Below the pieces are notes generated by a model. The model was not told the DNA's origin. It searched no databases and saw only the letters and a list, made by a program, of their open reading frames with translations. A stretch of 64,000 nt of DNA, from positions 3,493,083 through 3,557,082 of the forward strand of contig OZ244563.1 of assembly GCA_965217715.1 (NCBI GenBank), written 5' to 3'. A program made the translations under genes and the position numbers. The stretch is from Candidatus Poribacteria bacterium. Its GTDB lineage: Bacteria; Poribacteria; WGA-4E; WGA-3G. Below, in pieces: positions 1,588 through 61,208 of the stretch (the stretch's first letter is position 1; every line of letters begins with the position of its first letter).

Positions 1588-2940
1588 TCATACATTTTTC
1601 CCTAAACAGCACTGCTTATACTTCCGTCCACTACCGCACGGACAAGGCGAGTTACGTCCAATCTTCTGTGACGACGTAGAAGTTGTCTGAACCTTCATAT
1701 TATCACTCTTGCCTTTTGCTTGCCGACTTTCCCGCATCATCGGTATAATACTATTCGCGGGTTTTCCTGCTTGGAGAGCCGAAGCCATCAGTTTCATAGG
1801 CTCGTCAATGTGATTGAAAAAATGCTTATAGCCAGCACAGAGGTAGTTCAAGCCGTCTTCTCCATCGGGCGTTTTGATAATACGGTTTTTTGGGCAGCCA
1901 CCATTACAAACGAACTTCACCTCACAATTACGGCAGTACTCCGGTAATGTATCCCGTTTATCCGTACCGAATTTACGTTGAAAAGGTGAATCAACCATGT
2001 CCGCTATTGGAGTTTCTTCTATGTTACCAATGTGGTAATCAGGTGTGACGTAATGATCACAGGAATAGAGATCGCCATTATGTTCAATTGCCATCGCATC
2101 GCCACAGGTCTCATTGAAAATACAGAGGCTTGGGTTATACCCCATCCATGCTTCTAACGCGACATCAAAAATCTGGACAAAGATTTTGCCGATGTCATTA
2201 ACAACCCATTCATCAAAAATGGTGGAAAGAAATTTACCGTACTGCTTTGCCGTGACGGAGCGCGGGGACACATTCTTCCCATCGAAATGTTCAACCGCCG
2301 GAATAAACTGCATGAACTCCGCCCCAAGTCCTTTGAAATAGTTGTAGACCTCTTTCGGATATTCGGCATTATGGCTATTCACAACACAAAGTATATTATA
2401 GTCAACGTTATGCTTCTGTAATATCCGTAACCCTCGAATTACCTGTTCTGATGACGGACGACCGCGTTTATCATAACGATATTTATCGTGAATATCAGGT
2501 GGCCCGTCAATACTTACTCCTATTAGAAACTTATTCTGCTTGAAAAATTGACCCCACTCATCATCCAGTAGCGTAGCATTAGTTTGAAACGTATTTTGTA
2601 TCGTCATGCCAGTGCGTCTATATTTTTGTTGATATCGGATCGCTTGGCGGAAAAAATCCACACCCATTAACGTCGGTTCGCCGCCTTGCCACGCGAACGT
2701 GACTTCGTTAACCTGCTGTGCCTCTATATATTGCTTGACATACTTCTCCAAAGTTTCATCGCCCATCCGGAAAGAGCGAGTTTCGGGGTAGAGTTCCTCT
2801 TTTTCCAGATAAAAGCAGTATTCGCAATCTAAATTGCAAATTGGTCCTATTGGCTTTGTCATCACATGAAAAGCGCGTGGTGCATTAGGTTGAACCATTC
2901 GATTTACCTCTCTGCTTAAACTTTGCGTTAAGTGTAGCAT
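1588..2940 (-). CDS. Anaerobic sulfatase-maturating enzyme (radical SAM/SPASM) with a C-terminal SEC-C-like CPCGSGxKYKxCC tail
   Basis: 450 aa with a CNLDCEYCF radical SAM cluster motif and Cys-rich SPASM region (CRNCEVKFVCNGGCPKNR). It sits immediately next to the sulfatase on the same strand. The last 25 aa carry an SEC-C metal-binding motif. Confidence 0.85.
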   Translation of the reverse strand: MLHLTQSLSREVNRMVQPNAPRAFHVMTKPIGPICNLDCEYCFYLEKEELYPETRSFRMGDETLEKYVKQYIEAQQVNEVTFAWQGGEPTLMGVDFFRQAIRYQQKYRRTGMTIQNTFQTNATLLDDEWGQFFKQNKFLIGVSIDGPPDIHDKYRYDKRGRPSSEQVIRGLRILQKHNVDYNILCVVNSHNAEYPKEVYNYFKGLGAEFMQFIPAVEHFDGKNVSPRSVTAKQYGKFLSTIFDEWVVNDIGKIFVQIFDVALEAWMGYNPSLCIFNETCGDAMAIEHNGDLYSCDHYVTPDYHIGNIEETPIADMVDSPFQRKFGTDKRDTLPEYCRNCEVKFVCNGGCPKNRIIKTPDGEDGLNYLCAGYKHFFNHIDEPMKLMASALQAGKPANSIIPMMRESRQAKGKSDNMKVQTTSTSSQKIGRNSPCPCGSGRKYKQCCLGKNV

Positions 2941-3207
2941 ATTCCACCTGAATCCTCAAGAAAAAAGTGTCTTCACATTCCATCCTGTAGGCATAATCAT
3001 CAACAAAAAACGAAGATTCCTATTAAATAATAAAAACTTCTTGTCAAGAAATATGTAGTATGATAAATTGTTTTCAATATAAGGAAATATCATGGAACTC
3101 ACTTTGATAGTCTTGTTTTTATTAAAGGTTCCTATTATTCCGACATTCGCAATCCTTACCCATGAACCACCACAGTAAGGTTCTGGATAGTAAGTGATAT
3201 ATAAAAT

Positions 3208-3993
3208 ATGGGAGTTTATCAAATGAAGTTGTTAAGCATAAGTATAGTGTTGCTCTTATGTCTCTGTGCCACTTCATGGGCACTTGAGCAGAACGACGAA
3301 GCGATCGTTGGTGTATGGCTGTTTGAAGGCAATGCTGACGATTCGTCAGGAAACAAAAATGATGGAAAGGTTAACGGAAATTTCAAATTTGAAGATGGTA
3401 AGTTCGGTCAAGCTGTCGTCGCTGCTGGTGGCGGTAGTATTGATGTCCAAGAATCAGATAGCTTAAAGAGCGTCGGAGATCAATTGACTGTCGCTGCATG
3501 GTTCCGAGTAGATGCCGATTCGGACACTGGTGTCAGGAAAAATGGCGCATATCTGTTAGAAGACCAATCTGGCGGTGAACCCATCCCTGACGGTTTCTCT
3601 TTCAGAATCTGGACAGACCAGGGTATTACACCCGGGTTCTACGGTAAAACTGAGTTAGAGCAGAAGAAATGGCATCACGTTGCCGGAACTTATGATGGTA
3701 AAAATGTTGAGATGTATGTTGACGGTGAACCAGAAAGTGCCAAAGGAGCGCTTAATGCTGGCAAGGCTGATTGGAAACCAGAATGGGGTGGAAAAGTACA
3801 ACCAGGCCAGACATTACAACTCAAATTCGGACCTGAGTCATATACCGGTGCTATTGATGAGATCGTCATTCTCAGTCGTGCGCTTGAGGCTGATGAAATT
3901 AAGCAGTTACTGAATGGTTGGGGAGATGCTTTTGATGTTGGACCTGAAGGAAAATTAGCAACAACATGGGCACGGGTAAAAGCCGCCCGGTAA
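3208..3993 (+). CDS. Secreted LamG/concanavalin-like domain protein, paralog A, with conserved C-terminal KLATTWARVKAAR tail
   Basis: Signal peptide (MKLLSISIVLLLCLCATSWA). LamG-type blocks KWHHVAGTYDG and EMYVDGE. About 75 percent identical to the next ORF. Confidence 0.6.
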   Translation: MGVYQMKLLSISIVLLLCLCATSWALEQNDEAIVGVWLFEGNADDSSGNKNDGKVNGNFKFEDGKFGQAVVAAGGGSIDVQESDSLKSVGDQLTVAAWFRVDADSDTGVRKNGAYLLEDQSGGEPIPDGFSFRIWTDQGITPGFYGKTELEQKKWHHVAGTYDGKNVEMYVDGEPESAKGALNAGKADWKPEWGGKVQPGQTLQLKFGPESYTGAIDEIVILSRALEADEIKQLLNGWGDAFDVGPEGKLATTWARVKAAR

Positions 3994-5183: not shown

Positions 5184-6716
5184 TCAATTAAACCTATTTT
5201 CAACCTCACCAAACGACAGAATTTTCTTTATCTTCCCCGGTTGTGCCCAGTTACACTTTCCTGCCCCATTAAGTTGTCGCAACAATATCGGAATTTCTGG
5301 ATTTTCAAGTGAGGTTTTAATCCTTTGTGCTTCGTCTTTAGACCAGCACGGGATAAACGCATGCATCGCCTGATTGCCTTGCCACATCTGCCCATCTACA
5401 CTACTTAATATAATCGGGTTAAATTGATTCTTCCCATACGCCTGCCATATCACCTTGAAAGGTGCAAATGAATAGGGACCAACGCCAAGCATCGCCCACC
5501 AATTTCCCTTATTCATAGACGCACGCAGCATCGTGCCTTTCCTTGCTTGTAGTTGGTCTTGGTAGCGCTGAAGATAGTCCTGCAATATGTCATATTTTCC
5601 GATTTGATCCCATGTAAGCGGTTTTCCCGTTTCCCGATGATACGGCAGCAGAATCCATTTGTGAGGTGATAATACATTTTGCCGCCATATCTCCTTGCTT
5701 GCGAGGGGATATAGAAATTCTTCGGGGAGATGTGAAGGTTTGTGGTCAAAGATAAAAACACTATTCGCACCACATGTATTCACACCTTGCCGCGGCTTTT
5801 GTTCAGGTCCTAATCTGATCTCAAGTGTTTCACCCGCCTTGAGTTCATCAAGGTTTTGCACTACCCGCCATGGGTCAGTAGGATTTTTGAGCGGTAAAGC
5901 CTTATGTTCAATCCAATTTCCATCCACCTCTTTGAAATATGTGACTGGAAATTCCTGTTGTGTATCACTTTGAAACCTTGCACAACAGTATGCAGTGTTA
6001 ACCCCATCAAACACTTTAGTAGATGTAAATTCATAAACAACATCTATGGCAAAATTCCGATAGGTATCAAAGAAACTTTGCGAGCATTTAGCACTATAAT
6101 TTCTAAATCCGCTATGTGCGCCATCGCCAAAGAAGAGAGATGTCGGGAGATAGAAATAACCTGAACCGTTCTTTTTGAGTAGTTTTCCGAGAGCAATCTT
6201 CAGCACCAACGCCGCTATATCAACGCGAGAAGACCCCAAAAGTGTCCGTTGCGTATCCGCAACAAGTCCTTCTTGAATAAAATAGGGTTTTAGAAGTGTT
6301 TTGTAAGTCGTAGGTAAGTCTCCGAAGTTTGCCCACGGCGGATTCCCAATGAGAATGTCATATTGTTGTGTATGCGCCTCCGTGATAACATCTTGACAGA
6401 AGATTTGAGAGGAAGGAAAATCAACGCCAAATTCTCGTTGAACATTTTCTCTGAACTGCTCAAGGAACGAAGGGACTATCTCAATGAGCGTTAGACGTGA
6501 CATACGTTCCGCGCTAATTGGAATTCCTCTGTTCCGTGCGATATGGAGCATCGCTAAGACGAATACACCTTGTCCTGCTGTAGGGTCACAAATATGAGCA
6601 CCGTCAAGCCACGCATCAAAGATATCCCACTTATTGATGAGCCATTCTGCCCATTTGAGTGGTGTAAAAACTTTTCCGATATTAGCGTCTATTAAATGAG
6701 AAATGTTTGTATCCAT
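5184..6716 (-). CDS. N6-adenine DNA methyltransferase, gamma class (M.TaqI-like)
   Basis: GKVFTP at the N-terminus, motif I DPTAGQGVF, motif IV IGNPPW, then GSGYFYLPTSLF. The order and spacing match M.TaqI-type gamma methyltransferases. A long C-terminal target-recognition region follows. Confidence 0.8.
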   Translation of the reverse strand: MDTNISHLIDANIGKVFTPLKWAEWLINKWDIFDAWLDGAHICDPTAGQGVFVLAMLHIARNRGIPISAERMSRLTLIEIVPSFLEQFRENVQREFGVDFPSSQIFCQDVITEAHTQQYDILIGNPPWANFGDLPTTYKTLLKPYFIQEGLVADTQRTLLGSSRVDIAALVLKIALGKLLKKNGSGYFYLPTSLFFGDGAHSGFRNYSAKCSQSFFDTYRNFAIDVVYEFTSTKVFDGVNTAYCCARFQSDTQQEFPVTYFKEVDGNWIEHKALPLKNPTDPWRVVQNLDELKAGETLEIRLGPEQKPRQGVNTCGANSVFIFDHKPSHLPEEFLYPLASKEIWRQNVLSPHKWILLPYHRETGKPLTWDQIGKYDILQDYLQRYQDQLQARKGTMLRASMNKGNWWAMLGVGPYSFAPFKVIWQAYGKNQFNPIILSSVDGQMWQGNQAMHAFIPCWSKDEAQRIKTSLENPEIPILLRQLNGAGKCNWAQPGKIKKILSFGEVENRFN

Positions 6717-7356
6717 TGTTTCTAAATGCCTCTAAATCTGCAATACGTCTTAACGCGTCACTGCTAACTCGTCTATAATGTTGGATAGCGAGATCTATGA
6801 ACATATCATAAAAATCAGTAATATCCCGATTCCAATCAATTTCCTCCCAAACTTGGTTAACTGTGTAATTAAGCCGTATCTGTCCAGTACCAAGATTTTC
6901 AATTCTGTATGCATCCTGAGGGAATAAAATAAAAGGTGCTACACGGATATATACAAAATCGCGTTTTTCACTCTGGGGAGATAATTTGTTGTGTCCAAAT
7001 TCTGCGATAAGGAACATCCCATTATCATTTGCCAGAAATTTCAACAAATTACCAACAGCACAAATCCCACCATCAGAGTACCGAGTTGAATCTAGGTCCT
7101 TAGTTTTAACATCAACTCCAATGATTCTATTTTCAAACTGTAAAGCAAAATCAAAGATGGTACGTCTTCCTGGTCGTACTAACGCAGGATATCCAAGATC
7201 TGAACACATCTGGTCCCAATTATCAGCTATCTTTTTTTCAATCATTGCTCCAAAAGCTCGGGAATCTTCGCGTGCTGCTAACCCCGATGTTAGTTCTTCA
7301 GAAAAAATCTCAGATAGTTTATCTTCTATTTGACTGGATATTTCCTTTAGATCCAT
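6682..7356 (-). CDS. Putative Type II restriction endonuclease (PD-DxK-like)
   Basis: 224-aa ORF overlapping the methyltransferase start by 35 nt on the same strand. It contains IFDFAL ... IIGVDVKTK, consistent with a D...DxK nuclease core. No other recognisable domain. Confidence 0.45.
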   Translation of the reverse strand: MDLKEISSQIEDKLSEIFSEELTSGLAAREDSRAFGAMIEKKIADNWDQMCSDLGYPALVRPGRRTIFDFALQFENRIIGVDVKTKDLDSTRYSDGGICAVGNLLKFLANDNGMFLIAEFGHNKLSPQSEKRDFVYIRVAPFILFPQDAYRIENLGTGQIRLNYTVNQVWEEIDWNRDITDFYDMFIDLAIQHYRRVSSDALRRIADLEAFRNNGYKHFSFNRR

Positions 7357-7626
7357 AAAATTCCTCCTCTTCCATTCATTATAGTCAATTTATTAGTATG
7401 ATATTACAATTATGCCAACAACCGAGATCGTTGGGACAGTCGCAATAACCCTTGTTACAATGTTAGTATGTATTTTATCACTTATGAATATATTAATCAA
7501 CTTGTTAAATTTCTTTTGGCTTGACCTTTTCAGAGCAAATATGGTACCATTTGATAACCACCTGTCCTAACAATGTTTTCCGCACACTGTAACGGCACTT
7601 ATGGATAGTGAAAGGCAGATTATGCA

Positions 7627-10337: not shown

Positions 10338-10637
10338 AAAGTTACGGTTCTTCGTATCCTACGTGCTATAAACATCTCGCCTTTACAAGAAGGAAGACTA
10401 TAGGATTCGAAGAACCGTGATCTGAACAAACCGTGGGGAATGTTGATATGGCAGAAAAGGGGATAAATAACAGGAAAAATCCTATTTTGCAGTCGGTGGT
10501 GCAGCAAAGATCGTCTCAATGGACGTGTGGCAAATGCGCTCTATTTGGGAAGAATTGAAATATCGGGAAGGGGAGTAGGAAGATAAATAAGATCAACAAT
10601 TTCATGATAATTTTAAAACATAAAGGAGTAAGAAGCC

Positions 10638-11789
10638 ATGAAACGTCTCACACTAACATCGCTGGGACAAATCCGTGAAGCCGATATTGTCTTTGGAGAT
10701 CTGACAGTGTTTGTCGGTGAACAAGCGAGTGGAAAGAGCATTCTACTCCAACTTGTAAAGTTAATTTCAGACGCAGGCGATACTACGCAAACTCTCAAAA
10801 AACACGGTTTTGATTGGCAGAAAAAAGTTGAGAATTTTTTATCTCTTTATTTTGGTGAAGGGATGGGGACGATTTGGAACAAGGATGAGACGAAAGTCAC
10901 CGTTGATAAGGTAGATTTTACGCCTCGAAAAGCGTTATTAAAGAGAAAGAAAGATGAGAGTCTTTTTCTGATACCGGCACACCGTGTTGTAACATTAAAA
11001 GATGGATGGCCACGTGCTTTTACCGACTATGGCACGAGCGATCCGTACGTCGTTAAGGAGTTCAGCGAACAATTGCGCCTATTGATGGAAGCGGGTTTTG
11101 GTTCAGGTGAAAGCCCTATATTTCCTCATGCAGGTCGTATGAATAAAACAATACGAGATGCAATCGGGAAAAGTATCTTTGGGGAGGCTGAGTTGAGATT
11201 GGATAGATCCGGGCTGCGTAAACGGATTGTATTAGATGTTGCGGGTGCTCAACTACCATTTATGGTGTGGTCTACAGGTCAGAGAGAATTCGCTCCTCTT
11301 TTACTGGGACTGTACAGGTTAATGCCTTCAGGAAGAGCGCAAAAGAAAAATAACATCAACTGGGTTGTTATTGAAGAACCGGAAATGGGGTTGCATCCCA
11401 AAGCGATCTCAGCACTTCTCCTCATATTTTTAGAGTTATTAAGACGAGGTTACAAAGTCATTGTTTCGACCCATTCATCGCAAATTTTAGAACTTATCTG
11501 GGCTATTCAACTCATTGCTAAATCAAAAAATGCACCAGCAAGGTTAAGACAGTTGCTGGATTTGAAACCGAATAGCTTTTCCTATGACCTTACAGAGACA
11601 GTCATGCACAAAAAAACGTTCAAAACCTATTATTTCTCTCGTGAAGACAGTGTTGTAAATGTCAAAAATATCTCAACATTAGATGCGGAGGACATGGATG
11701 TTGAAGTATCGGATTGGGGAGGGTTAACAGCATTCAGTACTAAAGTTTCTGAAGTCGTCTCTGAAGCTATGTGGAGGACAGACGTGTGA
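10638..11789 (+). CDS. AAA_21/AAA_15-type ABC ATPase (OLD/Septu/PARIS-like defense ATPase family)
   Basis: Walker A GEQASGKS. Mid-protein VIEEPEMGLHP (ABC signature/D-loop analog typical of AAA_21). H-loop VSTHSSQIL. Confidence 0.75.
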   Translation: MKRLTLTSLGQIREADIVFGDLTVFVGEQASGKSILLQLVKLISDAGDTTQTLKKHGFDWQKKVENFLSLYFGEGMGTIWNKDETKVTVDKVDFTPRKALLKRKKDESLFLIPAHRVVTLKDGWPRAFTDYGTSDPYVVKEFSEQLRLLMEAGFGSGESPIFPHAGRMNKTIRDAIGKSIFGEAELRLDRSGLRKRIVLDVAGAQLPFMVWSTGQREFAPLLLGLYRLMPSGRAQKKNNINWVVIEEPEMGLHPKAISALLLIFLELLRRGYKVIVSTHSSQILELIWAIQLIAKSKNAPARLRQLLDLKPNSFSYDLTETVMHKKTFKTYYFSREDSVVNVKNISTLDAEDMDVEVSDWGGLTAFSTKVSEVVSEAMWRTDV

Positions 11790-12238
11790 ATATTTTCAAA
11801 AAAGCAGTTCGGAGTGTACCTGAAATACACGATTGTTTCAAAGACGGGTTACAGGCATTAGGGTCAAATAGTAGCAAGATAAAAGGATATGCGAAAGGTG
11901 ACCTTGTAGGAAGTGTTAACATAGACACTTGTCTCAAAAACCGTTATCCGAACGCATCCCGTTGGGATTATGTATTTGGTTGTAATGACAGGATTTACTA
12001 TGTTGAAGTTCATCAAGGGAAAACAAGTGAAGTAACAAAAATTGTTGAGAAATTAAATTGGTTAAAACAATGGCATAAGACTGCAGCAACGAGTCTTGAA
12101 AATTTGAAGGATCGGAGCATCTATCACTGGGTCTCTACGAAAGGAACTGCATCAATTGCCAAAGGAAGCAGACATCGCAGAAGATTAGATCAAAATGGCA
12201 TCCGTGGACCGAGTGCCGTATTGCGTATTGAACGCTGA
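11771..12238 (+). CDS. Small hypothetical protein (155 aa) overlapping the ATPase gene; candidate effector/partner
   Basis: Its start overlaps the ATPase stop by about 19 nt, which suggests translational coupling. No recognisable domain. RWDYVFGCNDRIYYVEVHQGK has a weak D...E.K flavour. Confidence 0.45.
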   Translation: MEDRRVNIFKKAVRSVPEIHDCFKDGLQALGSNSSKIKGYAKGDLVGSVNIDTCLKNRYPNASRWDYVFGCNDRIYYVEVHQGKTSEVTKIVEKLNWLKQWHKTAATSLENLKDRSIYHWVSTKGTASIAKGSRHRRRLDQNGIRGPSAVLRIER

Positions 12239-44689: not shown

Positions 44690-45112
44690 TCACCACTGTT
44701 CTTCAATCCATTCGTTGTCATGATCCGGATTATAAGTTAATCCTTTTCTGATATCAAGACAAAGGTCAAGCATTTCTAAAACTATGTGCCCCACAAGGAC
44801 AGGTGCATTATCGGGTAAGTCGGTTATTTCTAACGTTCCTGTTCGTTTTAGGACAGTAAACCTCACCTCTGAATAGATAGTCCGATCTACAATACCGTTT
44901 GCTGTTATTGCTCTCGTTGTTCCGACAGGTGTCAAACCGAGTTGTTCAATAAGCGATTTAGGTAACGACAATCGAGTCGCCCCGGTATCAACAAGCGCAT
45001 TTTCAACGGTGGCGCGCCGAACCTCTTCCAGTTTTATAACGCCTGCCTCTGCCAAAAATTGATCTTTTCGATTCACAAGTTCAATTTTTGTTGTATGTCT
45101 CATTTTCAACAC
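44690..45112 (-). CDS. Retropepsin-like (clan AA) aspartic protease
   Basis: ALVDTGATRLSLP is the D-T/S-G-A catalytic motif. About 140 aa, typical of bacterial single-domain retropepsins. Confidence 0.6.
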   Translation of the reverse strand: MLKMRHTTKIELVNRKDQFLAEAGVIKLEEVRRATVENALVDTGATRLSLPKSLIEQLGLTPVGTTRAITANGIVDRTIYSEVRFTVLKRTGTLEITDLPDNAPVLVGHIVLEMLDLCLDIRKGLTYNPDHDNEWIEEQW

Positions 45113-45441
45113 CTCATTGGGCTACCAAAAACAGTTGGCTTATGTCTATATTATGTTTTCTCCAAAAATTTTGCATATAGCATACTTTAGAATCTGTTTA
45201 TAAGCATATCACAAAAATAATAGGATGTCAAGTTTCTGAATTGCCGATTGTCTGAACCAGGATTCTCAAGATTATAGGATTTCCAGGATTGTTGACGGTA
45301 TAAATGTTCTTGAAGCAGACAACAACCTATCTCATAATCACTTTGAGATGCTGTGGAGAATAAGCGGTTATCGTTGAAGACACTCTAATCCTGAAAATCT
45401 GTAAATCTTGTAAATCCCGGTTCAGATAGCAGCAGAAAACC

Positions 45442-46023
45442 TTACTTCCTTATCAACATCTTCCGCGTAGCAGAAAAATCCCCTGCTTTTAGCGTATAGA
45501 AATACACACCACTTGCAACAGATTCACCGAGTGCGTTTTTCCCATCCCAATGTGCCGCACGACTCTTGCCTTGATAGATACCGACAGACTTATGTCCCAA
45601 TGCTAAGGTGTGTACCACTGTGCCATCTACCGCATAGATAGTCACTGTCACATCTGCAGACTCTGCTAACTGATACGGTATCCACGTCTCAGGATTGAAT
45701 GGATTTGGATAATTCGGTAATAGGGATGTCTTTTTCGGTGTTAAGGCTGCCAAGAGTTGTTCTAAGAAAAGAATCCCGCGTTGTGAGGTTGGATCTGTGA
45801 GACTTAGCTGCTGTGCTTGTGTAAGCCACTGTTGCACTTCCGATGTGGTAAGCAGGGCAGATGCCTGGGAATACACGGAAGGAGCAGATGCTGTATTACC
45901 GAATGCGCCAGCGACTAACACGAGATCTACAATATCTATAACACCATCGTTATTGACATCTCCAGGGGTGCTCTCTACTTGCTGTTGCTTGTCTACCTGT
46001 TTTCCCAAAACTTGCGGCGACAA
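45442..46023 (-). CDS. Dockerin repeat 2 plus T9SS-type C-terminal sorting domain (C-terminal part of the same frameshifted gene)
   Basis: DVNNDGVIDIVDLVLVAGAFG (second dockerin repeat). C-terminal NPFNPETWIPYQL ... GVYFYTLKAGDFSATRKMLIRK matches the Por/T9SS C-terminal domain (TIGR04183-like). It is in a different frame from the upstream part. Removing one A from the A4 run (T-run on plus strand, 46000..46003) fuses the two parts. Confidence 0.6.
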   Translation of the reverse strand: MSPQVLGKQVDKQQQVESTPGDVNNDGVIDIVDLVLVAGAFGNTASAPSVYSQASALLTTSEVQQWLTQAQQLSLTDPTSQRGILFLEQLLAALTPKKTSLLPNYPNPFNPETWIPYQLAESADVTVTIYAVDGTVVHTLALGHKSVGIYQGKSRAAHWDGKNALGESVASGVYFYTLKAGDFSATRKMLIRK

Positions 46024-47668
46024 GTCTCAAATCTAAAATGTCCACAACGCCATCAAGGTTGACATCCTCACGTAGCCGTGGCACACCAACAATAACGTTG
46101 ATATTTTTAAAAAAGAAGGGGAGGCGTTCACCTTCACTATCAACGATAACTGCTTCAGGCAAGGTTAGGGTTGATTCTTTAATAGCAATAAATTCAAACG
46201 TCAAGGTTGCGAGGGTACCATCACCGCTGCTGCTGTCAGCGAGAGAAGTTGCACCGAGTATCACTTCATTCCCTTCAATGACTGGGTCCACAAAAAACGA
46301 GTCATCTGGTAAGTAGTCGCCGTTGTAACTGTTCACATAGCGGAGTGCTGTCGAATCAAAAATTACCTTGGCTTGAAACCCAGTGACGTTTCCACCTTTA
46401 GTAATGTCAATGTTAAGTGTTAACTGGTCTCCGATAGCTGGAGCATCTACTGGTAAAACAGTAATACCTACGCGGGTATCAATAACCTTCCATAAGCGGA
46501 CGGTGTTATCATCACCCCCACTTGCAAGTGTTTGTCCATCCGGACTGAAGACTACGCTATTGATGCCTTCTGTATGTCCTACAAGAGTTGAATTTAGCGT
46601 TCCTGTTCCCACATCCCATAAGCGAACGGTGTTATCATAATCCGTACTTGCGAGTGTCTGCCCATCTGGACTGAAAACCCCCAAACCTGTTGTGATAGAA
46701 AACTTGGGTATGCCTGTTTCCACATCCCACAAGCGGATGGTGTTGTTAGATACCATATTCAACAGCATTTGTCCATCCGGACTGAACTCAATGGTCCAAA
46801 CACTATACGTTGGGAGTGTGTGCTTGAGCGTGCCTGTTTCTACGTCCCACAGTCGGATGGTTTTGTCACTACTTGCACTTGCGAGCGTCTTTCCATCCGG
46901 ACTGAACTCAACATTCGCGACATGCCCTGTATGTTCAGCGAGTGTATGCTTGAGTGTGCCTGTTTCAACATCCCACAAGTGGATTGTGTTTTCATCACTA
47001 TCTGTACTTACGAGTGTCTGTCCATCCGGACTGAACTCAACACTCAAGCTCCAGACATTATTCGTTGGGAGTGTATGCTTGAGTGTGCCTGTTTCCATAT
47101 CCCACAGGTGAATAGTGTTACTATCACGACTCCAACTTGCAAGCGTTTGCCCATCAGGACTGAAGAATGCTGAACTAACATTCTCCGCAGTGAGTGTGTG
47201 CTTGAGTGTGCCTGTTTCAACATCCCATAGATGGATGGTGTTATCATTATCTATATTCGCAATCATCTGCATATCCGTGCTAAATGCCGCTCTGCTGTAT
47301 GTGAATGGAAGCTTCTTCTCTCCTGTGGCAACATCCCACAGATAGTAAGTAGAGGGATTCCCACTCCTACTTAACAGGGTCTGTCCATTCGGACTGAACG
47401 CTACGCTATAGACATTACCTGAATGCCCTTCAAGAGTATGCAGGAGGATTCCTGTCTCAACATTCCACAAGCGGACGACATCGTCTTTTTTCTCCCAAAA
47501 ATTACCACTTTCACTTACAGCTGCAAGTATGCTACCATCCGGACTGAACGCTACACTATAGACATTACTACCACTATACCTTTCAAGGACGGTGTGTGCA
47601 ATATCTTGTGCGAAGGTGTTTAGGGAAAACAAGGTTAAAAGAATAAGTATCGTTAAGTTTGTTTTCAT
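45950..47668 (-). CDS. Secreted WD40 beta-propeller / cohesin-like / dockerin repeat-1 protein (N-terminal part of a frameshifted gene)
   Basis: Signal peptide. At least 10 WD40 repeats, many nearly identical (TIHLWDVETGTLKHTL). Cohesin-like block (GDQLTLNIDITKGG ... GDGTLATLTFEF). First dockerin repeat DVNLDGVVDILDL. The frame ends 9 codons after FGKTG. Confidence 0.7.
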   Translation of the reverse strand: MKTNLTILILLTLFSLNTFAQDIAHTVLERYSGSNVYSVAFSPDGSILAAVSESGNFWEKKDDVVRLWNVETGILLHTLEGHSGNVYSVAFSPNGQTLLSRSGNPSTYYLWDVATGEKKLPFTYSRAAFSTDMQMIANIDNDNTIHLWDVETGTLKHTLTAENVSSAFFSPDGQTLASWSRDSNTIHLWDMETGTLKHTLPTNNVWSLSVEFSPDGQTLVSTDSDENTIHLWDVETGTLKHTLAEHTGHVANVEFSPDGKTLASASSDKTIRLWDVETGTLKHTLPTYSVWTIEFSPDGQMLLNMVSNNTIRLWDVETGIPKFSITTGLGVFSPDGQTLASTDYDNTVRLWDVGTGTLNSTLVGHTEGINSVVFSPDGQTLASGGDDNTVRLWKVIDTRVGITVLPVDAPAIGDQLTLNIDITKGGNVTGFQAKVIFDSTALRYVNSYNGDYLPDDSFFVDPVIEGNEVILGATSLADSSSGDGTLATLTFEFIAIKESTLTLPEAVIVDSEGERLPFFFKNINVIVGVPRLREDVNLDGVVDILDLRLVAASFGKTGRQATASREHPWRCQ

Positions 47669-49484: not shown

Positions 49485-51530
49485 TTGCTGGGGAAACCGG
49501 TTATGTTATCTGAAATAATGCATCGGAAAAAGTTATGGTTCAAAACCTTTTCCACGCATATTATATTTATTCTCGTTTGCTGGAGTGGGGTGATAGCCGA
49601 CATTGCTGCACAACAGGCAGATATTGCCATCCTATTACCATCAACAGCGTCTGGTGTCCCAGAAAGTGATGTGAACTATGCACGTTCTGTCAGCAGGCGT
49701 TTTGTCCGCATGTTAAAAAGCATCGGTTTTTCGGCAGATCAATTGGAAGAGTCATCTGCTGCGGATGTGCCTCGCTTGCAGAACACATCTTCTAATCCGT
49801 ATCGGTTGATAATCCTTCCACTTAATCCAAAAATCACCCCAAAAACAGCCACTCTTCTGCAGCGTTATGTGGCTCATGGCGGAAAACTTTTTGTAACCTA
49901 TAACCTTGCGGATGAGGTCGCATCGCTTCTGAATTTACACAGTATAAAATGGATGCGCCAAGAAGCCTCTGGTCAGTTCGCTTCCATTCAATTTGATGCA
50001 CCTGAAATTTTAGGTATCCCGAAATTTGTCCGGCAAGCATCGTGGAATATCACGGTGGTAGAATCTACCGATCCACAAACAAAAATTATCGGACAGTGGC
50101 ACAATGCAGAGGGTAAATCGACCGGATATCCTGCCTTTTTCTTAAGTGAAGCAGGTGTATTTTTTAGCCATGTTTTCCTTCCTGACGATATCCGAACCAA
50201 AACGCAGCTCCTCGCGGCACTTCTCGGACATCTTGTTCCTGAATTTCAGCATGCAATCGCAAAACGTGAATTGGAAGCGATGACGACCTTCGGACACATC
50301 AATAGCCTTGACACCTTAACGAAATTTGTAGGGTATGGCGGGATTTCTGAAGCAAAACAAGCGTTACAAACGGGAAAGACCTTGACGACGCAAGCACGAA
50401 CTGAATACGCACGCGAGGATTATTACGAAGCGATGACCGCAGCACGTGAGAGTCGAGATGCACTTTCAAAAGCATATTTTCTATCTCACTTGAGCGATGA
50501 AACGGAAGGACGCGCTTTATGGAATCATTCAGGACTTGGGGCATACCCTGGCGACTGGGAACGTTCTACTAAGGAATTGGCTGCTGCGGGTATTAACATG
50601 ATTTTTCCGAATATGGCATGGGGAGGTTTAGCCCATTACGATAGCAGCATCTTGCCTCAGAGTGCAAAGTTTACAAAATATGGAGACCAAATTGCGCAAT
50701 GCGTTAAGGCAGCGCATAAGCACAAGTTGGAAGTCCATGTATGGAAGATCACTTGGAATTTGGAAGGTGCACCGAAAGAATTTGTGGAAGAACTGCGAAA
50801 TGCCGGACGCACGCAAGTTTCGGCAACGGGCGACCCGATCAATTGGCTTTGCCCTTCTAATCCAGAAAACGTGCTGTTGGAATTGAATGCTATCACGGAA
50901 ATCGTGCAGAACTACGATGTTGACGGTATCCACCTCGATTATATACGTTATCCGGGGAGCCGAGCTTGCTATTGTGATGAATGCCATAAAAGATTCATGC
51001 TTGCGACACGACAACATATTCAGGAATGGCCCACGTCTGTGTTACCAAGAACGGGACAACACGGGAAAGCGTATATTGAATGGCGCGCGCAACAGATAAC
51101 CCGCTTAGTACGCTTGATCCACAAACGCACACGTGAGATAAAACCGAACATAAAGATTTCAACTGCAGTTTTTGGTGCCTATCCTGACTGTGTAACATCT
51201 ATTGGGCAGGATTGGATTGCGTGGGCAAAAGCAGGCTATGTCGATTTTGTTTGCCCTATGAACTATACTGAAGACACCAAATATTTCACCGACCTGTTAG
51301 AGAAGCAGCTTGCACTTATGCCGAAAGATGTGGCAATTTATCCGGGTATCGGTGCAACTGCATCTAATTCTCTCCTTACACCCGATGCCGTAATTGGACA
51401 GATTCATCTGGCACGCTTTTTAGGTGCGTCCGGTTGGACAATTTTCGATTATACTGTCAATATATCAGATACCATCCTACCTGCTATTCAAATGGGTGTC
51501 GGTAAACGAAAAGCTGAACCTGTACATTGA
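49485..51530 (+). CDS. Glycoside hydrolase-like family 10 (GHL10/PF02638, YngK-like) protein
   Basis: DGIHLDYIRYP is the signature of PF02638. Secreted N-terminus. A CYCDECHKRF Cys pair. Confidence 0.6.
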   Translation: MLGKPVMLSEIMHRKKLWFKTFSTHIIFILVCWSGVIADIAAQQADIAILLPSTASGVPESDVNYARSVSRRFVRMLKSIGFSADQLEESSAADVPRLQNTSSNPYRLIILPLNPKITPKTATLLQRYVAHGGKLFVTYNLADEVASLLNLHSIKWMRQEASGQFASIQFDAPEILGIPKFVRQASWNITVVESTDPQTKIIGQWHNAEGKSTGYPAFFLSEAGVFFSHVFLPDDIRTKTQLLAALLGHLVPEFQHAIAKRELEAMTTFGHINSLDTLTKFVGYGGISEAKQALQTGKTLTTQARTEYAREDYYEAMTAARESRDALSKAYFLSHLSDETEGRALWNHSGLGAYPGDWERSTKELAAAGINMIFPNMAWGGLAHYDSSILPQSAKFTKYGDQIAQCVKAAHKHKLEVHVWKITWNLEGAPKEFVEELRNAGRTQVSATGDPINWLCPSNPENVLLELNAITEIVQNYDVDGIHLDYIRYPGSRACYCDECHKRFMLATRQHIQEWPTSVLPRTGQHGKAYIEWRAQQITRLVRLIHKRTREIKPNIKISTAVFGAYPDCVTSIGQDWIAWAKAGYVDFVCPMNYTEDTKYFTDLLEKQLALMPKDVAIYPGIGATASNSLLTPDAVIGQIHLARFLGASGWTIFDYTVNISDTILPAIQMGVGKRKAEPVH

Positions 51531-58563: not shown

Positions 58564-58620
58564 CTTGACAAACAAAAGTGTTCTCTTATAGTATAGCAAT
58601 ACATAAGGAGGAACACACCC

Positions 58621-59064
58621 TTGAATAAGAAATATGTTGTCCAACTGACCGATGCGGAACGACAGGAGTTATCAGATATTATTAACACAGGTAAAAAAGA
58701 GGCATATATGATAAGGCATGCTCATATTTTGCTGAAATCAGATATAAATGGTCCCTGCTGGACTGACGCGAGAATAGCTGAGGCGTATGAGTGCACTGAT
58801 AGGACAGTTGCGAAAGTGCGTCAGCGTTTTGTGGAAGGTGGCTTTTCTCGTGCCTTATATCGTGCGAAGCGGAAGCATCCACCGACACCTCGTAAACTTG
58901 ATGGTGACGGAGAAGCAAGGTTGATAGCACTGAGTTGTGGAACCCCTCCCGAAGGTGCTGCCAAATGGACGTTACGTCTGCTTGCGTCAGAGTTGGTAAG
59001 ACTTGAAGTTGTGGAAAACATTTCTCCAGAAACGGTGCGGCAGACACTAAAAAAAACGCGTTGA
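58621..59064 (+). CDS. IS630-family transposase OrfA (HTH/winged-helix N-terminal part)
   Basis: MNKKYVVQLTDAERQELSDII ... WTLRLLASEL ... is typical IS630 OrfA. Confidence 0.8.
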   Translation: MNKKYVVQLTDAERQELSDIINTGKKEAYMIRHAHILLKSDINGPCWTDARIAEAYECTDRTVAKVRQRFVEGGFSRALYRAKRKHPPTPRKLDGDGEARLIALSCGTPPEGAAKWTLRLLASELVRLEVVENISPETVRQTLKKTR

Positions 59065-59747
59065 AACCACACCTTCAGCAACAGTGGGTGATACCCCCTG
59101 AAAAAGACGCTGAGTTTGTAAAGTCAATGGAAGAAGTGCTTGATCTTTACCAGAAACCTTTGGCTGCGGATACTCCTGTTGTGAACATGGACGAACAATC
59201 TGTCACACTTAGGGATGATGTTCGTGAACCGTATCCTGCGAAACCGGGACAAGTCAAGCGCGTAGATAACGAGTATAAACGCAAAGGCACAGCAAATATC
59301 TTCCTATTTACAGAGGCACTCTCGGGATGGCGGCGTGTGTCTGTTCGGACGCACCGAAAGACAGTGGATTGGGCAGAAGAAGTCAAAATACTATTGGATG
59401 AGGTCTACCCATCCGCAAAACAGGTCATTTTAGTTTGTGATAACCTGAATACACATAAACTCGCGTCACTCAATAAAGTGTTTGGAGATGAAGAAGCAGA
59501 TAGGTTCCGGAAGCGTTTAGAAATCGTGCATACCCCCATTCATGGAAGTTGGTTGAATATAGCGGAAATAGAACTTAGCGTCCTTACACGCCAATGTTTG
59601 TGTCGTCGAATCCCAGATATAGAGACACTCCGTAGAGAGACACAAGCGTGGCAAAAACGTAGAAATGCAGAGCAAAAGCAGGTAGACTGGCAATTTACAA
59701 CGGACGATGCGCGTGTCAGATTAAAACATCTATACCCGAAAAGTTAG
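59061..59747 (+). CDS. IS630-family transposase OrfB (DDE_3 catalytic domain)
   Basis: DDE_3 blocks. The frame is -1 relative to OrfA. The two are probably fused by programmed frameshifting on the A8 run. Confidence 0.8.
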   Translation: MKPHLQQQWVIPPEKDAEFVKSMEEVLDLYQKPLAADTPVVNMDEQSVTLRDDVREPYPAKPGQVKRVDNEYKRKGTANIFLFTEALSGWRRVSVRTHRKTVDWAEEVKILLDEVYPSAKQVILVCDNLNTHKLASLNKVFGDEEADRFRKRLEIVHTPIHGSWLNIAEIELSVLTRQCLCRRIPDIETLRRETQAWQKRRNAEQKQVDWQFTTDDARVRLKHLYPKS

Positions 59748-60084
59748 ACTGGACTAACCACTAGGAACCAATTAGTCTCTCATATTCATCGTGTTTACCA
59801 ATCCAAACCCAAGTGAAATCATTGCCATCTTTAGTGGCAAGAGCTCTATAATCTTACCCTACGCGGGCAGACCAATATTTGCCAACTTTCTTGAAATGTA
59901 GAGATCGGTGTCGTGGGTTAATTTTGAGGAGCTCGAAATTCTGTCTTGCAGTTTTTTTGTACAGGTTCAGGGAGTTGCTGAAAAAATCTCCAGAAACGCG
60001 TGGTTGTTCTGTGCGCCTAATGAACTTTGACAATCAAACGGGGTAATGTTATGATGGTATAATCCGAAATATAAGGAGTGTATC

Positions 60085-60375
60085 ATGGCAAAACGCAGAG
60101 AACTCTTTCTTACAGAAGAAGAAAGACAGAAACTGATTAAATATAGAGATCATCACCCTCGTCCTGATGTCAGAGAAAAAGCTGCAGCGTTGTTGAAAGT
60201 AAACGATGGTATTCCAGCACACCGGGTTTCGACCAGTGGGTTACTCAAACGCCGCAAGCCTGATACCGTCTACAGATGGTTGAATATTTATGAAGACGAA
60301 GGTTTTGATGGGTTAATACAGCGACAGCATGGAGGGGCAAGACAGCGATTTTCAAAAAAAAAGAAGAACTCTTAG
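60085..60375 (+). CDS. IS630-family transposase OrfA
   Basis: 96 aa with a basic HTH region. Ends in KKKKNS, encoded by the A9 slippery run. Confidence 0.75.
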   Translation: MAKRRELFLTEEERQKLIKYRDHHPRPDVREKAAALLKVNDGIPAHRVSTSGLLKRRKPDTVYRWLNIYEDEGFDGLIQRQHGGARQRFSKKKKNS

Positions 60376-60380
60376 AACGT

Positions 60381-61208
60381 GTGCGCCAAGCCCCAGATGA
60401 AGTTGTGGATAAAGCGAAAGGCGTTTCTACTGATGTGCCTCTCCCAAGTCGTTGGACGCTTCGGACACTACGTAGGAGCCTTGATTGGTTAGAAGGATAC
60501 AGCCTGAGTGGTGTTCATAGAGTGCTGTCTCGTTGCGGTTTGCGTCTTCGTTCAGGTCGCGTGCAGCAGTATAGTCCGGATCCTGAGTATAAGGAGAAAG
60601 TGTCGCATCTATGTTCCTGCTTACAGCAGACCGTTCACAATCATGGTAAACAAGAGTTAGTATTTCTTGATGAGATGGGATATACTCGCTGGCCTGAAGC
60701 TGGGCGTGTTTGGACACAAGCACCGCCGGAAAGTATTCCGGTAGCAGGTTGTGATGGAAATAATCAGCAATGGCGGATTATTGGTGCGCTGAATGGGTTG
60801 ACGGGACAGGTATGTTATCTTGATAACTATATTGTAGGACGTGCGAAAGTGGTTGAAATGTATCAGAAGTTGACACAAGTCTATCCACAAGCAGAAACAC
60901 TTTACGTTGTTCAAGACAACGGGTCTATTCACAAACATCCGGATGTGCTTGATGCGTTATCAGAGTTGCCACAGATCAAGCCTGTTTGGCTACCGACTTA
61001 TGCGCCGTGGTTGAACCCGATTGAGAAGTTGTGGAGATGGCTGCGGGTTGATGTGTTTAAGATGCATCGCTTTGCGGGCCAGTGGGAGGCGTTCAGAGCC
61101 CGGGTGAACGGATTTCTTGATCAATTTGCCGCTGGTTCGGACGACTTACTCCGTTATGTAGGACTGAAAGGCGGTGGTCTAATGGCTAACGCTTGTAGAC
61201 CTGTTTAA
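60381..61208 (+). CDS. IS630-family transposase OrfB (DDE_3)
   Basis: VFLDEMGYTR ... YVVQDNGSIHKH ... WLPTYAPWLNPIEKLW are canonical IS630 DDE_3 blocks. Confidence 0.8.
   Translation: MRQAPDEVVDKAKGVSTDVPLPSRWTLRTLRRSLDWLEGYSLSGVHRVLSRCGLRLRSGRVQQYSPDPEYKEKVSHLCSCLQQTVHNHGKQELVFLDEMGYTRWPEAGRVWTQAPPESIPVAGCDGNNQQWRIIGALNGLTGQVCYLDNYIVGRAKVVEMYQKLTQVYPQAETLYVVQDNGSIHKHPDVLDALSELPQIKPVWLPTYAPWLNPIEKLWRWLRVDVFKMHRFAGQWEAFRARVNGFLDQFAAGSDDLLRYVGLKGGGLMANACRPV

Follow-up and report, generated by a model that had tools for sequence, protein, structure and literature searches.

The window, a 64-kb stretch of DNA, contains at positions 45442–47668 of its minus strand a disrupted gene; all features described below lie on this strand. 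According to the ORF listing, the gene is divided between ORF A (45950–47668), which encodes 572 aa, and ORF B (45442–46023), which encodes 193 aa and overlaps ORF A in another frame. Removal of one base joins the two into a continuous ORF of 741 aa, and from the cohesin onward the lengths of the orthologs agree with this frame, which supports the proposal in the earlier note that the two ORFs are one gene with a 1-nt frameshift inside the dockerin. The repaired protein contains, from N-terminus to C-terminus, a signal peptide, nine WD40 blades, a cohesin, a two-repeat dockerin, a helical linker, and a T9SS-type/FlgD-Ig-like C-terminal domain (CTD). Domain searches on the repaired protein bear out the order WD40–cohesin–dockerin–CTD that had been read from the letters. 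In the gene as written, the shift produces an out-of-frame end of ORF A (GRQATASREHPWRCQ followed by a stop; 45950–45997, from the ORF translation), and the resulting 572-aa protein (P0002) is on record from one contig only. A tblastn search revealed no paralogs of the gene within the 64-kb window.

The first 20 residues form a putative Sec-type signal peptide, MKTNLTILILLTLFSLNTFA followed by QD (47609–47668; read from the sequence). Specifically, it has K2, a hydrophobic core, and a TFA-QD end, and in the AF2 model it is a low-confidence helix at the N-terminus. How the domains are placed relative to one another is likewise modelled with low confidence (pTM of 0.43–0.62).

The signal peptide is followed by a WD40 β-propeller (residues ~25–394; 46487–47596), assigned by Pfam, AF2, and Foldseek. 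Pfam WD40 (PF00400) matches at E 1.3e-61 with 8 matched stretches, and nine blade motifs of the FSPDG type can be counted in the sequence of ORF A. The propeller region is all-β with high pLDDT in the AF2 model, and its best Foldseek matches are WD40 propellers (e.g. 5mzh, E 6e-28). The region thus combines the repeated units of WD40 proteins with a predicted propeller fold.

Blades 3–6 (46814–47239), located by motif search and DNA comparison, share the core TI[HR]LWD[VM]ETGTLKHTL, which occurs at 47192–47239, 47069–47116, 46940–46987, and 46814–46861. The earlier note had counted TIHLWDVETGTLKHTL five times in blades said to be nearly identical at the DNA level. In the gene, this motif is present in exact form twice and in the degenerate form given above four times. 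The 48-nt cores of blades 3–6 share 81–90% DNA identity, entire blades share 69–76%, and the longest exact run common to blades is 29 nt. Similarly, TRF reports a 129-bp period at 46786–47247 with 3.6 copies and only 73% matches. Every blade of the window gene has 74–95% DNA identity to its ortholog counterpart, compared with 56–76% to blades within its own gene. The blades are therefore older than the species split, which is at odds with the suggested recent intragenic expansion or concerted evolution. Repeat collapse, which had been thought likely, is not expected either, as the blades are diverged enough for assembly.

The cohesin module (residues ~399–527; 46088–46474) was identified by Pfam, AF2, and Foldseek. 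It passes the Pfam Cohesin (PF00963) cut-off of 24.1 bits with 28.4–29.8 bits and is a predicted β-sandwich with pLDDT of 87–94 in the AF2 models. Foldseek returned 84 PDB matches for the predicted module at E ≤ 1e-3, of which the best 50 are all cohesins. The top structural match is 2xdh (E 3.5e-10, TMt 0.78, rmsd 2.6 Å). Judged from the model, the module is predicted to adopt the nine-stranded β-sandwich (jelly-roll) fold of cohesins.

The dockerin is the module in which the frame breaks. Repeat 1 (DVNLDGVVDILDLRLVAASFG, residues 535–555; 46004–46066) lies in the frame of ORF A and repeat 2 (DVNNDGVIDIVDLVLVAGAFG; 45898–45960) lies in the frame of ORF B, both defined by Pfam and PDB alignment. 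As written, the halves score 18.4 and 19.2 bits against Pfam Dockerin_1 (PF00404), under the cut-off of 22.9 bits. The repaired dockerin scores 29.1 bits over positions 2–53 of 57, in agreement with the idea that the join restores a complete two-repeat dockerin. Over its full length it also aligns with 2y3n_B, a cellulosomal dockerin of solved structure (E 4.9e-9). A dockerin consists of two segments, each with a calcium loop (D1, N3, D5, D/N9, D12) followed by a helix. Among 47 family members, the calcium-loop residues D535, N537, D539, and D546 of repeat 1 are invariant; in repeat 2, D570, D574, and D581 are invariant and N572 is nearly so. The repeats DVNLDGVVDILD and DVNNDGVIDIVD carry predicted helices at 544–552 and 579–590. 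The repaired protein thus has the two calcium-loop segments of a dockerin.

Between the dockerin and the C-terminal domain there is a conserved helical linker (TASAPS...EVQQWLTQAQQLSLTDPTSQRGILFLEQLLAALTPKKT; 45727–45894), recognized by phmmer and AF2. In a phmmer search with this segment, 117 of the 120 best protein matches proved to contain it. It is predicted by AF2 to form three helices, and residues W614, L615, G631, and L635–L639 are invariant in 47 family members. No Pfam family matches the linker.

The protein ends with a predicted β-sandwich of T9SS type A/FlgD-Ig-like character (SLLPNYPNPFNPETWIPYQL...GVYFYTLKAGDFSATRKMLIRK; 45445–45726), assigned by HMMs and AF2 and followed by the stop codon at 45442–45444. 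Its β strands are predicted with pLDDT of 85–94. The earlier note had called it a Por-secretion C-terminal domain, and this assignment holds for one model and not for another: the tail passes NCBIfam TIGR04183 (37.6 bits, cut-off 23) and falls narrowly under the cut-off of Pfam Por_Secre_tail (PF18962; 24.4–26.3 bits, cut-off 27). It also passes Pfam FlgD_ig (PF13860) with 33–36 bits (cut-off 27). The tail was compared with solved structures by PDB sequence profile, the fold matches of the C-terminal model being dominated by the cohesin, and in this search FlgD (3osv) was matched at E 8e-5, and PorU and a Por CTD only at E 0.4–0.5. By sequence, the tail therefore appears closer to the Ig-like domains of FlgD than to the CTDs solved from Bacteroidota. 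Consistent with the placement of T9SS domains, it stands at the extreme C-terminus of a protein with a putative Sec signal peptide, and it ends at the last residue both here and in the best 150 of 6,220 cluster representatives.

Intact orthologs of the gene are found in synteny, with lengths of 702 aa (L001), 648 aa (L002), and 821 aa (L003). Among orthologs, the WD40 blades number 7, 8, 9, or 10. The neighbourhood shared by the window and the orthologs comprises GHL10, Amidase_3, the gene itself, tRNA-Val, tRNA-Asp, and SerRS. Among the species-representative genomes scanned, the nearest match is 71% identical.

The C-terminal cassette, which comprises the cohesin, two-repeat dockerin, helical linker, and CTD, is far more widespread than this locus. 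It is present in 113 of the 120 best protein matches; a scan of species-representative genomes gave over 580 stretches that contain it, and of the 79 loci listed nearly all are from Poribacteria. Cluster representatives with a match at E ≤ 1e-30 number 6,220, and the best 150 of these all match to the final positions of the cassette, most of them across the entire cassette. Besides WD40, the cassette is joined to LRR, LDL-receptor-B, and other repeat passengers. Relatives from Candidatus Poribacteria bear the NCBI names 'T9SS type A sorting domain-containing', 'dockerin type I domain-containing', and 'cohesin domain-containing protein'. The gene is thus a member of a very large poribacterial family with a variable N-terminal passenger and a fixed C-terminal cassette. 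Many poribacterial eukaryote-like repeat proteins, above all WD40 proteins, were already reported to carry a TIGR04183 tail (Kamke et al. 2014, PMC3909097). With this report and the counts given above, the description of the protein as an unusual secreted scaffold does not stand; the architecture is ordinary within Poribacteria, and the break alone is out of the ordinary.

DNA alignment with two intact syntenic orthologs defines the frameshift site. From the cohesin onward, the window gene has 1027 nt, compared with 1026 nt in both orthologs. The stretch agttttgggaaaaca, which contains the T4, G3, and A4 runs, is unchanged across the window and the two orthologs, and is followed by GGTA in the window and by ACA/ATA in the orthologs. 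The extra base is therefore placed at 45994–45997, in the linker between both dockerin repeats, and not in the A4/T4 run at 46000–46003 that the earlier note had made responsible. Compared with the orthologs, A has become GG, or else one base was substituted and one duplicated. The join first proposed, ...GKTG-KQVDK..., mixes two frames, and the ortholog-guided repair reads ...ASFGKT-V-DKQQQVE... Repair by deleting an A from the A4 run was dropped, since that run is unchanged in the ortholog alignment. A DNA pattern spanning the frameshift site had no matches in the metagenome collection. Similarly, a metagenome protein scan found relatives of at most 72% identity and no close ortholog covering the site.

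The placement of the extra base bears directly on the suggestion of slipped-strand regulation, in which slippage in the A4/T4 run would toggle surface display in a phase-variable manner. Phase variation typically targets surface proteins, and short T4, G3, and A4 runs adjoin the site. However, neither ortholog differs from the window in these runs, the extra base is located outside them, and no tract of variable length is found at the indel. The tracts of contingency loci are also usually far longer than 3–4 bases. Furthermore, the cassette is in one frame in 50 of 51 copies at other poribacterial loci, and the one exceptional copy looks like two adjacent genes. With the indel outside any homopolymer and the homopolymers constant among orthologs, the slipped-strand idea falls, and we consider such a switch very improbable.

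A programmed ribosomal frameshift, by which the gene as written would still give a full-length protein, is equally hard to sustain. A +1 shift would be needed, and in the frame of ORF A the site is followed by AGA (ACA GGT AGA); in other systems, +1 shifts can be stimulated by rare Arg codons. However, the orthologs are in a single frame here, so the shift is not conserved. In addition, ACA-GGU-AGA offers no re-pairing of tRNA in the +1 frame, a slippery motif is absent, and no Shine-Dalgarno-like stimulator is seen upstream. Recoding at this site is thus highly unlikely.

The two ORFs could also be expressed separately, as a WD40-cohesin protein and a dockerin-CTD protein. In marine metagenomes there are relatives that have the dockerin, linker, and CTD and lack the cohesin, which speaks for such a division. 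ORF B itself, however, begins in the middle of the dockerin, and the half dockerin is under the Pfam threshold. It has no ATG and no signal peptide, none of its TTG or GTG codons is preceded by a Shine-Dalgarno-like motif, and the promoter scan found no promoter-like site directly upstream of it; in the promoter and terminator scan, the counts of sites were not above those of shuffled controls. The split point also lies in a continuous frame in all orthologs. Lacking a usable start and a signal peptide, ORF B is not a gene of its own, and the independent expression that had been raised for it has hardly any likelihood. It is close to certain that the locus is one frameshifted gene of the poribacterial cassette family.

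The strength of selection on either side of the break limits its age. With the frame repaired, the codons after the break give a dN/dS of 0.11 against each of the two orthologs. Upstream of the break it is 0.11–0.16, and it is 0.08–0.17 for the intact ortholog pair. The 184 codons downstream of the break contain no further stops or indels in the repaired frame. Selection is thus not relaxed after the break. Given equally low dN/dS on both sides, the break is either very recent or an assembly error.

The break may be an artefact or a real change. In one reading, it is an error of sequencing or consensus, and the organism has an intact gene from which the full 741-aa protein is made. The low downstream dN/dS and the absence of secondary lesions are what this reading expects, the other copies examined are all intact, and the sequence is recorded from a single assembly. 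However, the same dN/dS is expected from a recent true mutation. The extra base is outside any homopolymer of at least 3 bases, the usual site of long-read indel errors, and the nature of the change, GG in place of A or one base substituted and one duplicated, also speaks against such an error. The rest of the window has no clear mark of an indel-prone assembly. Specifically, its long ORFs, up to 1040 aa, are all intact, and Pfam searches on five overlapping same-strand ORF pairs revealed two IS630-like transposases as the only clearly split genes, a check that says little about the indel error rate. As no homopolymer is present at the site and the window is without clear signs of indel-prone assembly, we infer that the break is probably real, namely that the gene was inactivated by a mutation very recently or that the consensus contains a strain variant. 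A consensus error is a serious alternative, to which we give clearly less than an even chance.

The domain composition suggests how the intact protein would function, and from it we infer the export route, the surface display, and the cohesin–dockerin partners. The Sec signal peptide would carry the intact protein to the periplasm, and the C-terminal domain would guide it across or onto the outer membrane. The WD40 propeller would then be exposed as a binding platform, and the cohesin and dockerin may let family members bind one another or bind dockerin-only partners. The product as written, with 572 aa, would comprise the signal peptide, the WD40 propeller, the cohesin, and half a dockerin. 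As the second dockerin repeat, the helical linker, and the export tail are missing from it, this product would be neither displayable nor able to dock. The export step of the tail is uncertain, because Kamke et al. 2014 (PMC3909097) detected none of the structural genes of Por/T9SS in single-cell genomes of Poribacteria and because the tail is nearer to FlgD Ig-like domains. Taken as a whole, namely a family gene, the mechanism outlined here, and a real change at the break, this explanation is in our judgement reasonably probable.

The closest counterparts are the poribacterial WD40 proteins of Kamke et al. 2014 (PMC3909097), with which the window protein shares the phylum, the WD40 passenger, and the TIGR04183-type tail. 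The cohesin, dockerin, and helical linker are unmentioned there, and the window copy, in contrast, is frameshifted. In the literature searched, a link between Poribacteria and dockerins is absent save for one passing co-occurrence, and there is no statement that cohesin and dockerin occur in one shared cassette of poribacterial repeat proteins.

With the Bacteroidota type A cargo of T9SS, the protein has in common an N-terminal signal peptide, a C-terminal β-sandwich of ~90 aa that passes TIGR04183, and an end of the type G-x-Y...K-x-x-x-x-K (GVYFYTL...RKMLIRK in the window). Unlike that cargo, its tail is under the Por_Secre_tail cut-off and is matched by Por CTDs at E ~0.4–0.5, as against E 8e-5 for FlgD, and T9SS is not demonstrated in Poribacteria (PMC3909097). 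Outside Bacteroidota, a precedent for cohesins joined to a conserved surface-attachment C-terminal domain is the scaffoldin-like protein of the Cloacimonadota 'Ca. Stygibacter', which has tandem cohesins and a T9SS-type CTD (Williams et al. 2021, PMC8542988). The Cloacimonadota protein combines numerous cohesins with CBMs and has dockerin-bearing hydrolases as partners, whereas the poribacterial chain has one cohesin (in some members two), one dockerin, and a repeat-protein passenger.

The clostridial cellulosome shares the modules and not the design. The window dockerin aligns with the Cel48 dockerin 2y3n_B and has canonical D-x-N-x-D-G...D calcium loops, and the predicted fold of the window cohesin matches both type I and type II cohesins. 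However, the window protein has one cohesin instead of an array and lacks catalytic and carbohydrate-binding modules; Pfam searches of the gene gave no significant catalytic or CBM family, with CBM_X2 at E 0.19. In addition, its host is diderm, and it has an outer-membrane-type tail instead of an SLH or sortase anchor. The poribacterial protein is thus not a cellulosome. Another parallel may be offered by Archaeoglobus fulgidus, whose proteins also combine a cohesin and a dockerin in one polypeptide. Its non-cellulosomal cohesin 2xdh (Peer et al. 2009, FEMS Microbiol Lett) is the best fold match of the window cohesin, and a glycoside hydrolase or CBM is attached in neither. A. fulgidus belongs to another domain of life, however, and the poribacterial modules stand between a WD40 propeller and a secretion-type tail, in a family of thousands of members.

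The locus itself is of little weight, being a single broken copy of a gene of which hundreds of relatives are intact. Among the symbionts of sponges, Poribacteria are dominant, and a part in host interaction is ascribed to their eukaryote-like repeat proteins. It is conceivable, if rather doubtful, that the cassette is a Poribacteria-wide module for display and self-assembly that exports WD40, LRR, YWTD, and other eukaryote-like repeats by a route other than the canonical Bacteroidota T9SS, that its cohesin and dockerin join these proteins to one another and to dockerin-only partners in a surface lattice facing the sponge host, and that the locus in the window is a recently lost node. The interest at the level of the family is twofold: one C-terminal cassette with both a cohesin and a dockerin is common to these proteins, and a Por-type tail occurs in a phylum without reported Por machinery. 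Both points could make a long-standing annotation puzzle experimentally testable, namely through the export of the tail and the pairing of cohesin with dockerin.

The minus-strand WD40-cohesin-dockerin-tail gene at 45442–47668 is read as two ORFs in different frames, with an overlap of 74 nt. ORF A (45950–47668, −) encodes 572 aa, and ORF B (45442–46023, −) encodes 193 aa from a TTG start that is purely mechanical. Deletion of one base yields a single 741-aa reading frame, confirming that the two ORFs are one gene with a 1-nt shift. The repaired protein contains a signal peptide (MKTNLTILILLTLFSLNTFA/QD, identified by sequence inspection), WD40 repeats (PF00400, E 1.3e-61, 8 matched stretches), a cohesin (28.4 bits; Pfam cut-off 24.1), a type I dockerin (29.1 bits; cut-off 22.9; Pfam profile positions 2–53 of 57), and a C-terminal beta-sandwich domain. 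Scored separately with the Pfam profile, the dockerin halves reach 18.4 and 19.2 bits, both below threshold, indicating that the frameshift splits a dockerin in two, as the earlier note had proposed. Along the two repeats, the repaired dockerin aligns with 2y3n_B, a cellulosomal dockerin of solved structure (E 4.9e-9). The C-terminal domain exceeds the cut-offs of NCBIfam TIGR04183 (37.6 bits versus 23) and Pfam FlgD_ig and falls narrowly below that of Pfam Por_Secre_tail (24.4–26.3 bits versus 27).

AlphaFold2 models built with family alignments have a mean pLDDT of 83.9 for the full-length protein and 80.8 for the C-terminal part; the arrangement of the domains relative to one another is unreliable (pTM 0.43–0.62). 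The full-length model resembles WD40 propellers in its N-terminal region. All 50 best structure matches of the C-terminal model are cohesins, and the nearest fold to the predicted cohesin is 2xdh, a non-cellulosomal cohesin of Archaeoglobus fulgidus (E 3.5e-10, TMt 0.78, rmsd 2.6 Å). The tail is a predicted beta-sandwich, and its sequence profile is nearest to FlgD Ig-like domains (3osv, E 8e-5), with weak similarity to solved Por C-terminal domains (E 0.4–0.5).

A protein search found intact close relatives with 80% (P0004), 74% (P0003), 71% (P0001), and 68% (P0005) identity, the last named ‘T9SS type A sorting domain-containing protein [Candidatus Poribacteria bacterium]’ at NCBI. The loci of P0003 (L001) and P0004 (L002) have the same neighbours as the window, namely GHL10, Amidase_3, the subject gene, tRNA-Val, tRNA-Asp, and SerRS, while the locus of P0001 (L003) shares the tRNA pair; these genes are thus orthologous to that of the window. 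In a DNA alignment of the window, L001, and L002, the agttttgggaaaaca stretch (T4, G3, A4) is unchanged in all three sequences and is followed by GGTA in the window versus ACA in L001 and ATA in L002. Counted from the cohesin start to the stop codon, the gene is 1027 nt long in the window and 1026 nt long in both L001 and L002. The extra base therefore lies at 45994–45997 and not in the A4/T4 run at 46000–46010; the earlier note had placed it at 46000–46003. Repair guided by the orthologs gives ...ASFGKT-V-DKQQQVESTPGDVNNDG..., and the frameshift site corresponds to the variable linker separating the two dockerin repeats. At the same linker, P0001 (L003 6001–8463), P0011, and P0037 carry an insertion of ~45–60 residues with a third calcium-loop-like repeat (GDINKDGIVDSADL...).

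ALTERNATIVES set aside were slipped-strand switching, programmed +1 frameshifting, and separate expression of the tail. The slipped-strand regulation raised earlier finds no support, because the short runs are invariant among the orthologs and the indel lies outside them. Programmed +1 frameshifting disagrees with the single frame of the orthologs, and ACA-GGU-AGA is not slippery. ORF B begins in the middle of a domain and has no signal peptide; it contains no ATG, no Shine-Dalgarno-like motif was found ahead of any of its TTG or GTG codons, and no promoter-like site was found immediately upstream, evidence against the promoter and start of its own that had been considered for it.

The WD40 array proved more diverged than its first description as near-identical blades. 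The exact motif TIHLWDVETGTLKHTL, reported as five copies, occurs twice, and a looser form, TI[HR]LWD[VM]ETGTLKHTL, occurs four times. The four 48-nt blade cores are 81–90% identical at the DNA level and whole blades 69–76%, with a longest shared exact run of 29 nt; the period given by TRF is 129 bp, at 73% matches. All 8 complete repeat units of the window have their nearest counterpart in an ortholog (74–95% DNA identity) rather than in their own gene (56–76%), indicating that the blades are older than the split of these species. We thus see no sign of recent repeat expansion or concerted evolution, nor, given the divergence among blades, of a risk of repeat collapse. Blade counts differ among the orthologs (L002, 7; L001, 8; window, 9; L003, 10), whole blades having been gained or lost in mid-array (L001 4044–6152, L002 6001–7947, L003 6001–8463).

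Shortly past the stop codon of the gene is a short tandem repeat, CTGTAAAT x3.1 (45391–45416); a minus-strand scan for terminator-like hairpins gave none there. Between the WD40 gene and tRNA-Val sits an ORF for a retropepsin-like aspartyl protease of 140 aa (44690–45112, −; Asp_protease_2 and gag-asp_proteas, with a DTGA motif). In L001–L003 no more than ~100 nt separate the WD40 gene from the tRNA pair, which makes this ORF an insertion particular to the window genome.

Nei-Gojobori dN/dS in the repaired frame is 0.16 upstream and 0.11 downstream of the site for the window versus L001, 0.11 and 0.11 for the window versus L002, and 0.17 and 0.08 for the two intact genes, L001 versus L002. No additional stop or indel was found in the 184 codons downstream. 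There has thus been no measurable period of relaxed selection, and the break, if real, is very recent. The intact frame is the family norm: all four C-terminal modules are present in 113 of the 120 best protein matches, with the window's own ORF A product (P0002) lacking both linker and tail, and 50 of 51 cassette copies (cohesin, two-repeat dockerin, helical linker, and tail) in other poribacterial loci are in one frame, the exception resembling two adjacent genes. That the extra base is an error and the gene is intact in the organism is accordingly a reading of some weight, though one we do not favour. The frameshift site is not a homopolymer, and the long ORFs of the 64-kb window are intact, with only two IS630-like transposases clearly split. 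The 572-aa product is on record from one contig only (5,507,996 bp), and protein look-ups and scans of species representatives and metagenomes did not turn up another assembly from this lineage. On balance, we lean towards a real change over a consensus error. As written, the product would comprise signal peptide, WD40 repeats, cohesin, half a dockerin, and a 15-residue nonsense tail; lacking the export domain, it would probably remain in the periplasm.

The two IS630-like transposase genes (HTH_32 and DDE_3) are adjacent, at 58597–59747 (+) and 60055–61208 (+), and each is broken into a pair of ORFs that overlap in different frames. The HTH_32 match of the second copy reaches profile position 31 of 73 where the ORF ends, placing the shift inside the domain; programmed frameshifting or decay could account for both. 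The ORF pair 5184–6731 and 6682–7389 (−), with a weak Eco57I-type methylase match in its downstream member that does not quite reach the Pfam cut-off, may also be a split gene. This pair and the region 10632–12238 (+), in which an AAA_21/AAA_15 ATPase (10632–11789) is followed by a small overlapping ORF, may be defence-related. The GHL10 glycosidase-like neighbour, one ~680-aa ORF in the window (49485–51530) and in L001, is annotated in L002 (TARA contig, 1871–3888, −) as separate genes for 531 and 140 aa, possibly another frameshift in that assembly.

The intact protein would first be exported by Sec and then be transferred to the cell surface in a tail-dependent step. The displayed WD40 propeller would serve as a binding platform, and cohesin-dockerin pairing may join family members to one another or attach them to dockerin-only partners. 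The weak link is the export step: many poribacterial eukaryote-like repeat proteins, WD40 proteins especially, carry a TIGR04183-type domain, yet the same study did not find Por structural genes in the genomes of Poribacteria (Kamke et al. 2014, PMC3909097). The combination of WD40 and Por-type tail in Poribacteria is already published, and WD40 abundance was noted again (PMC8163846). Cohesin modules with a conserved C-terminal domain for surface attachment are described in Cloacimonadota (PMC8542988, which cites Peer et al. 2009). Cohesins and dockerins outside cellulosomes, such as the best fold match 2xdh, form a recognised class. Unlike a cellulosome, which was set aside as a model, the subject protein lacks catalytic and carbohydrate-binding modules and has just one cohesin. 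Our literature search found no paper tying Poribacteria to dockerins or cohesins in substance; NCBI product names of individual poribacterial proteins already state dockerin or cohesin.

The architecture, first taken as unusual, is common. A scan of one genome per species gave more than 580 confirmed relatives; among the 79 loci listed, titles are nearly all Candidatus Poribacteria, with many closed chromosomes and often several copies per genome. Against 1.84 billion cluster representatives, the cassette profile matches 6,220 proteins at E<=1e-30. The best 150 of these (306 to 2,408 aa) all match to the last cassette positions at the extreme C-terminus, most along the whole cassette. Besides WD40, passengers include LRR arrays, LDL-receptor class B (YWTD) repeats, BT_3987-like repeats, and unassigned domains; cassettes with other passengers (poribacterial loci L054, L058, L063, L065, L067, L071, L080, and L081) are 50–59% identical over query residues ~369–741, mostly from ~397. 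Some members have two cohesins. Many metagenomic relatives (L085–L160, e.g. Ga0310342, Ga0310345, Ga0066832, MKWU01) have dockerin, linker, and tail without cohesin (query residues ~130–341), which makes them possible dockerin-only partners for the proteins that carry a cohesin. Across 47 members, neither the calcium-loop residues of the dockerin nor the tail motif Y-PNPFNPETW-x-P-Y varies. The subject gene thus belongs, in frameshifted form, to a very large protein family already known from Poribacteria; the observation is real but ordinary, and the specialist interest lies in the family-wide cassette and its export route rather than in the window locus.
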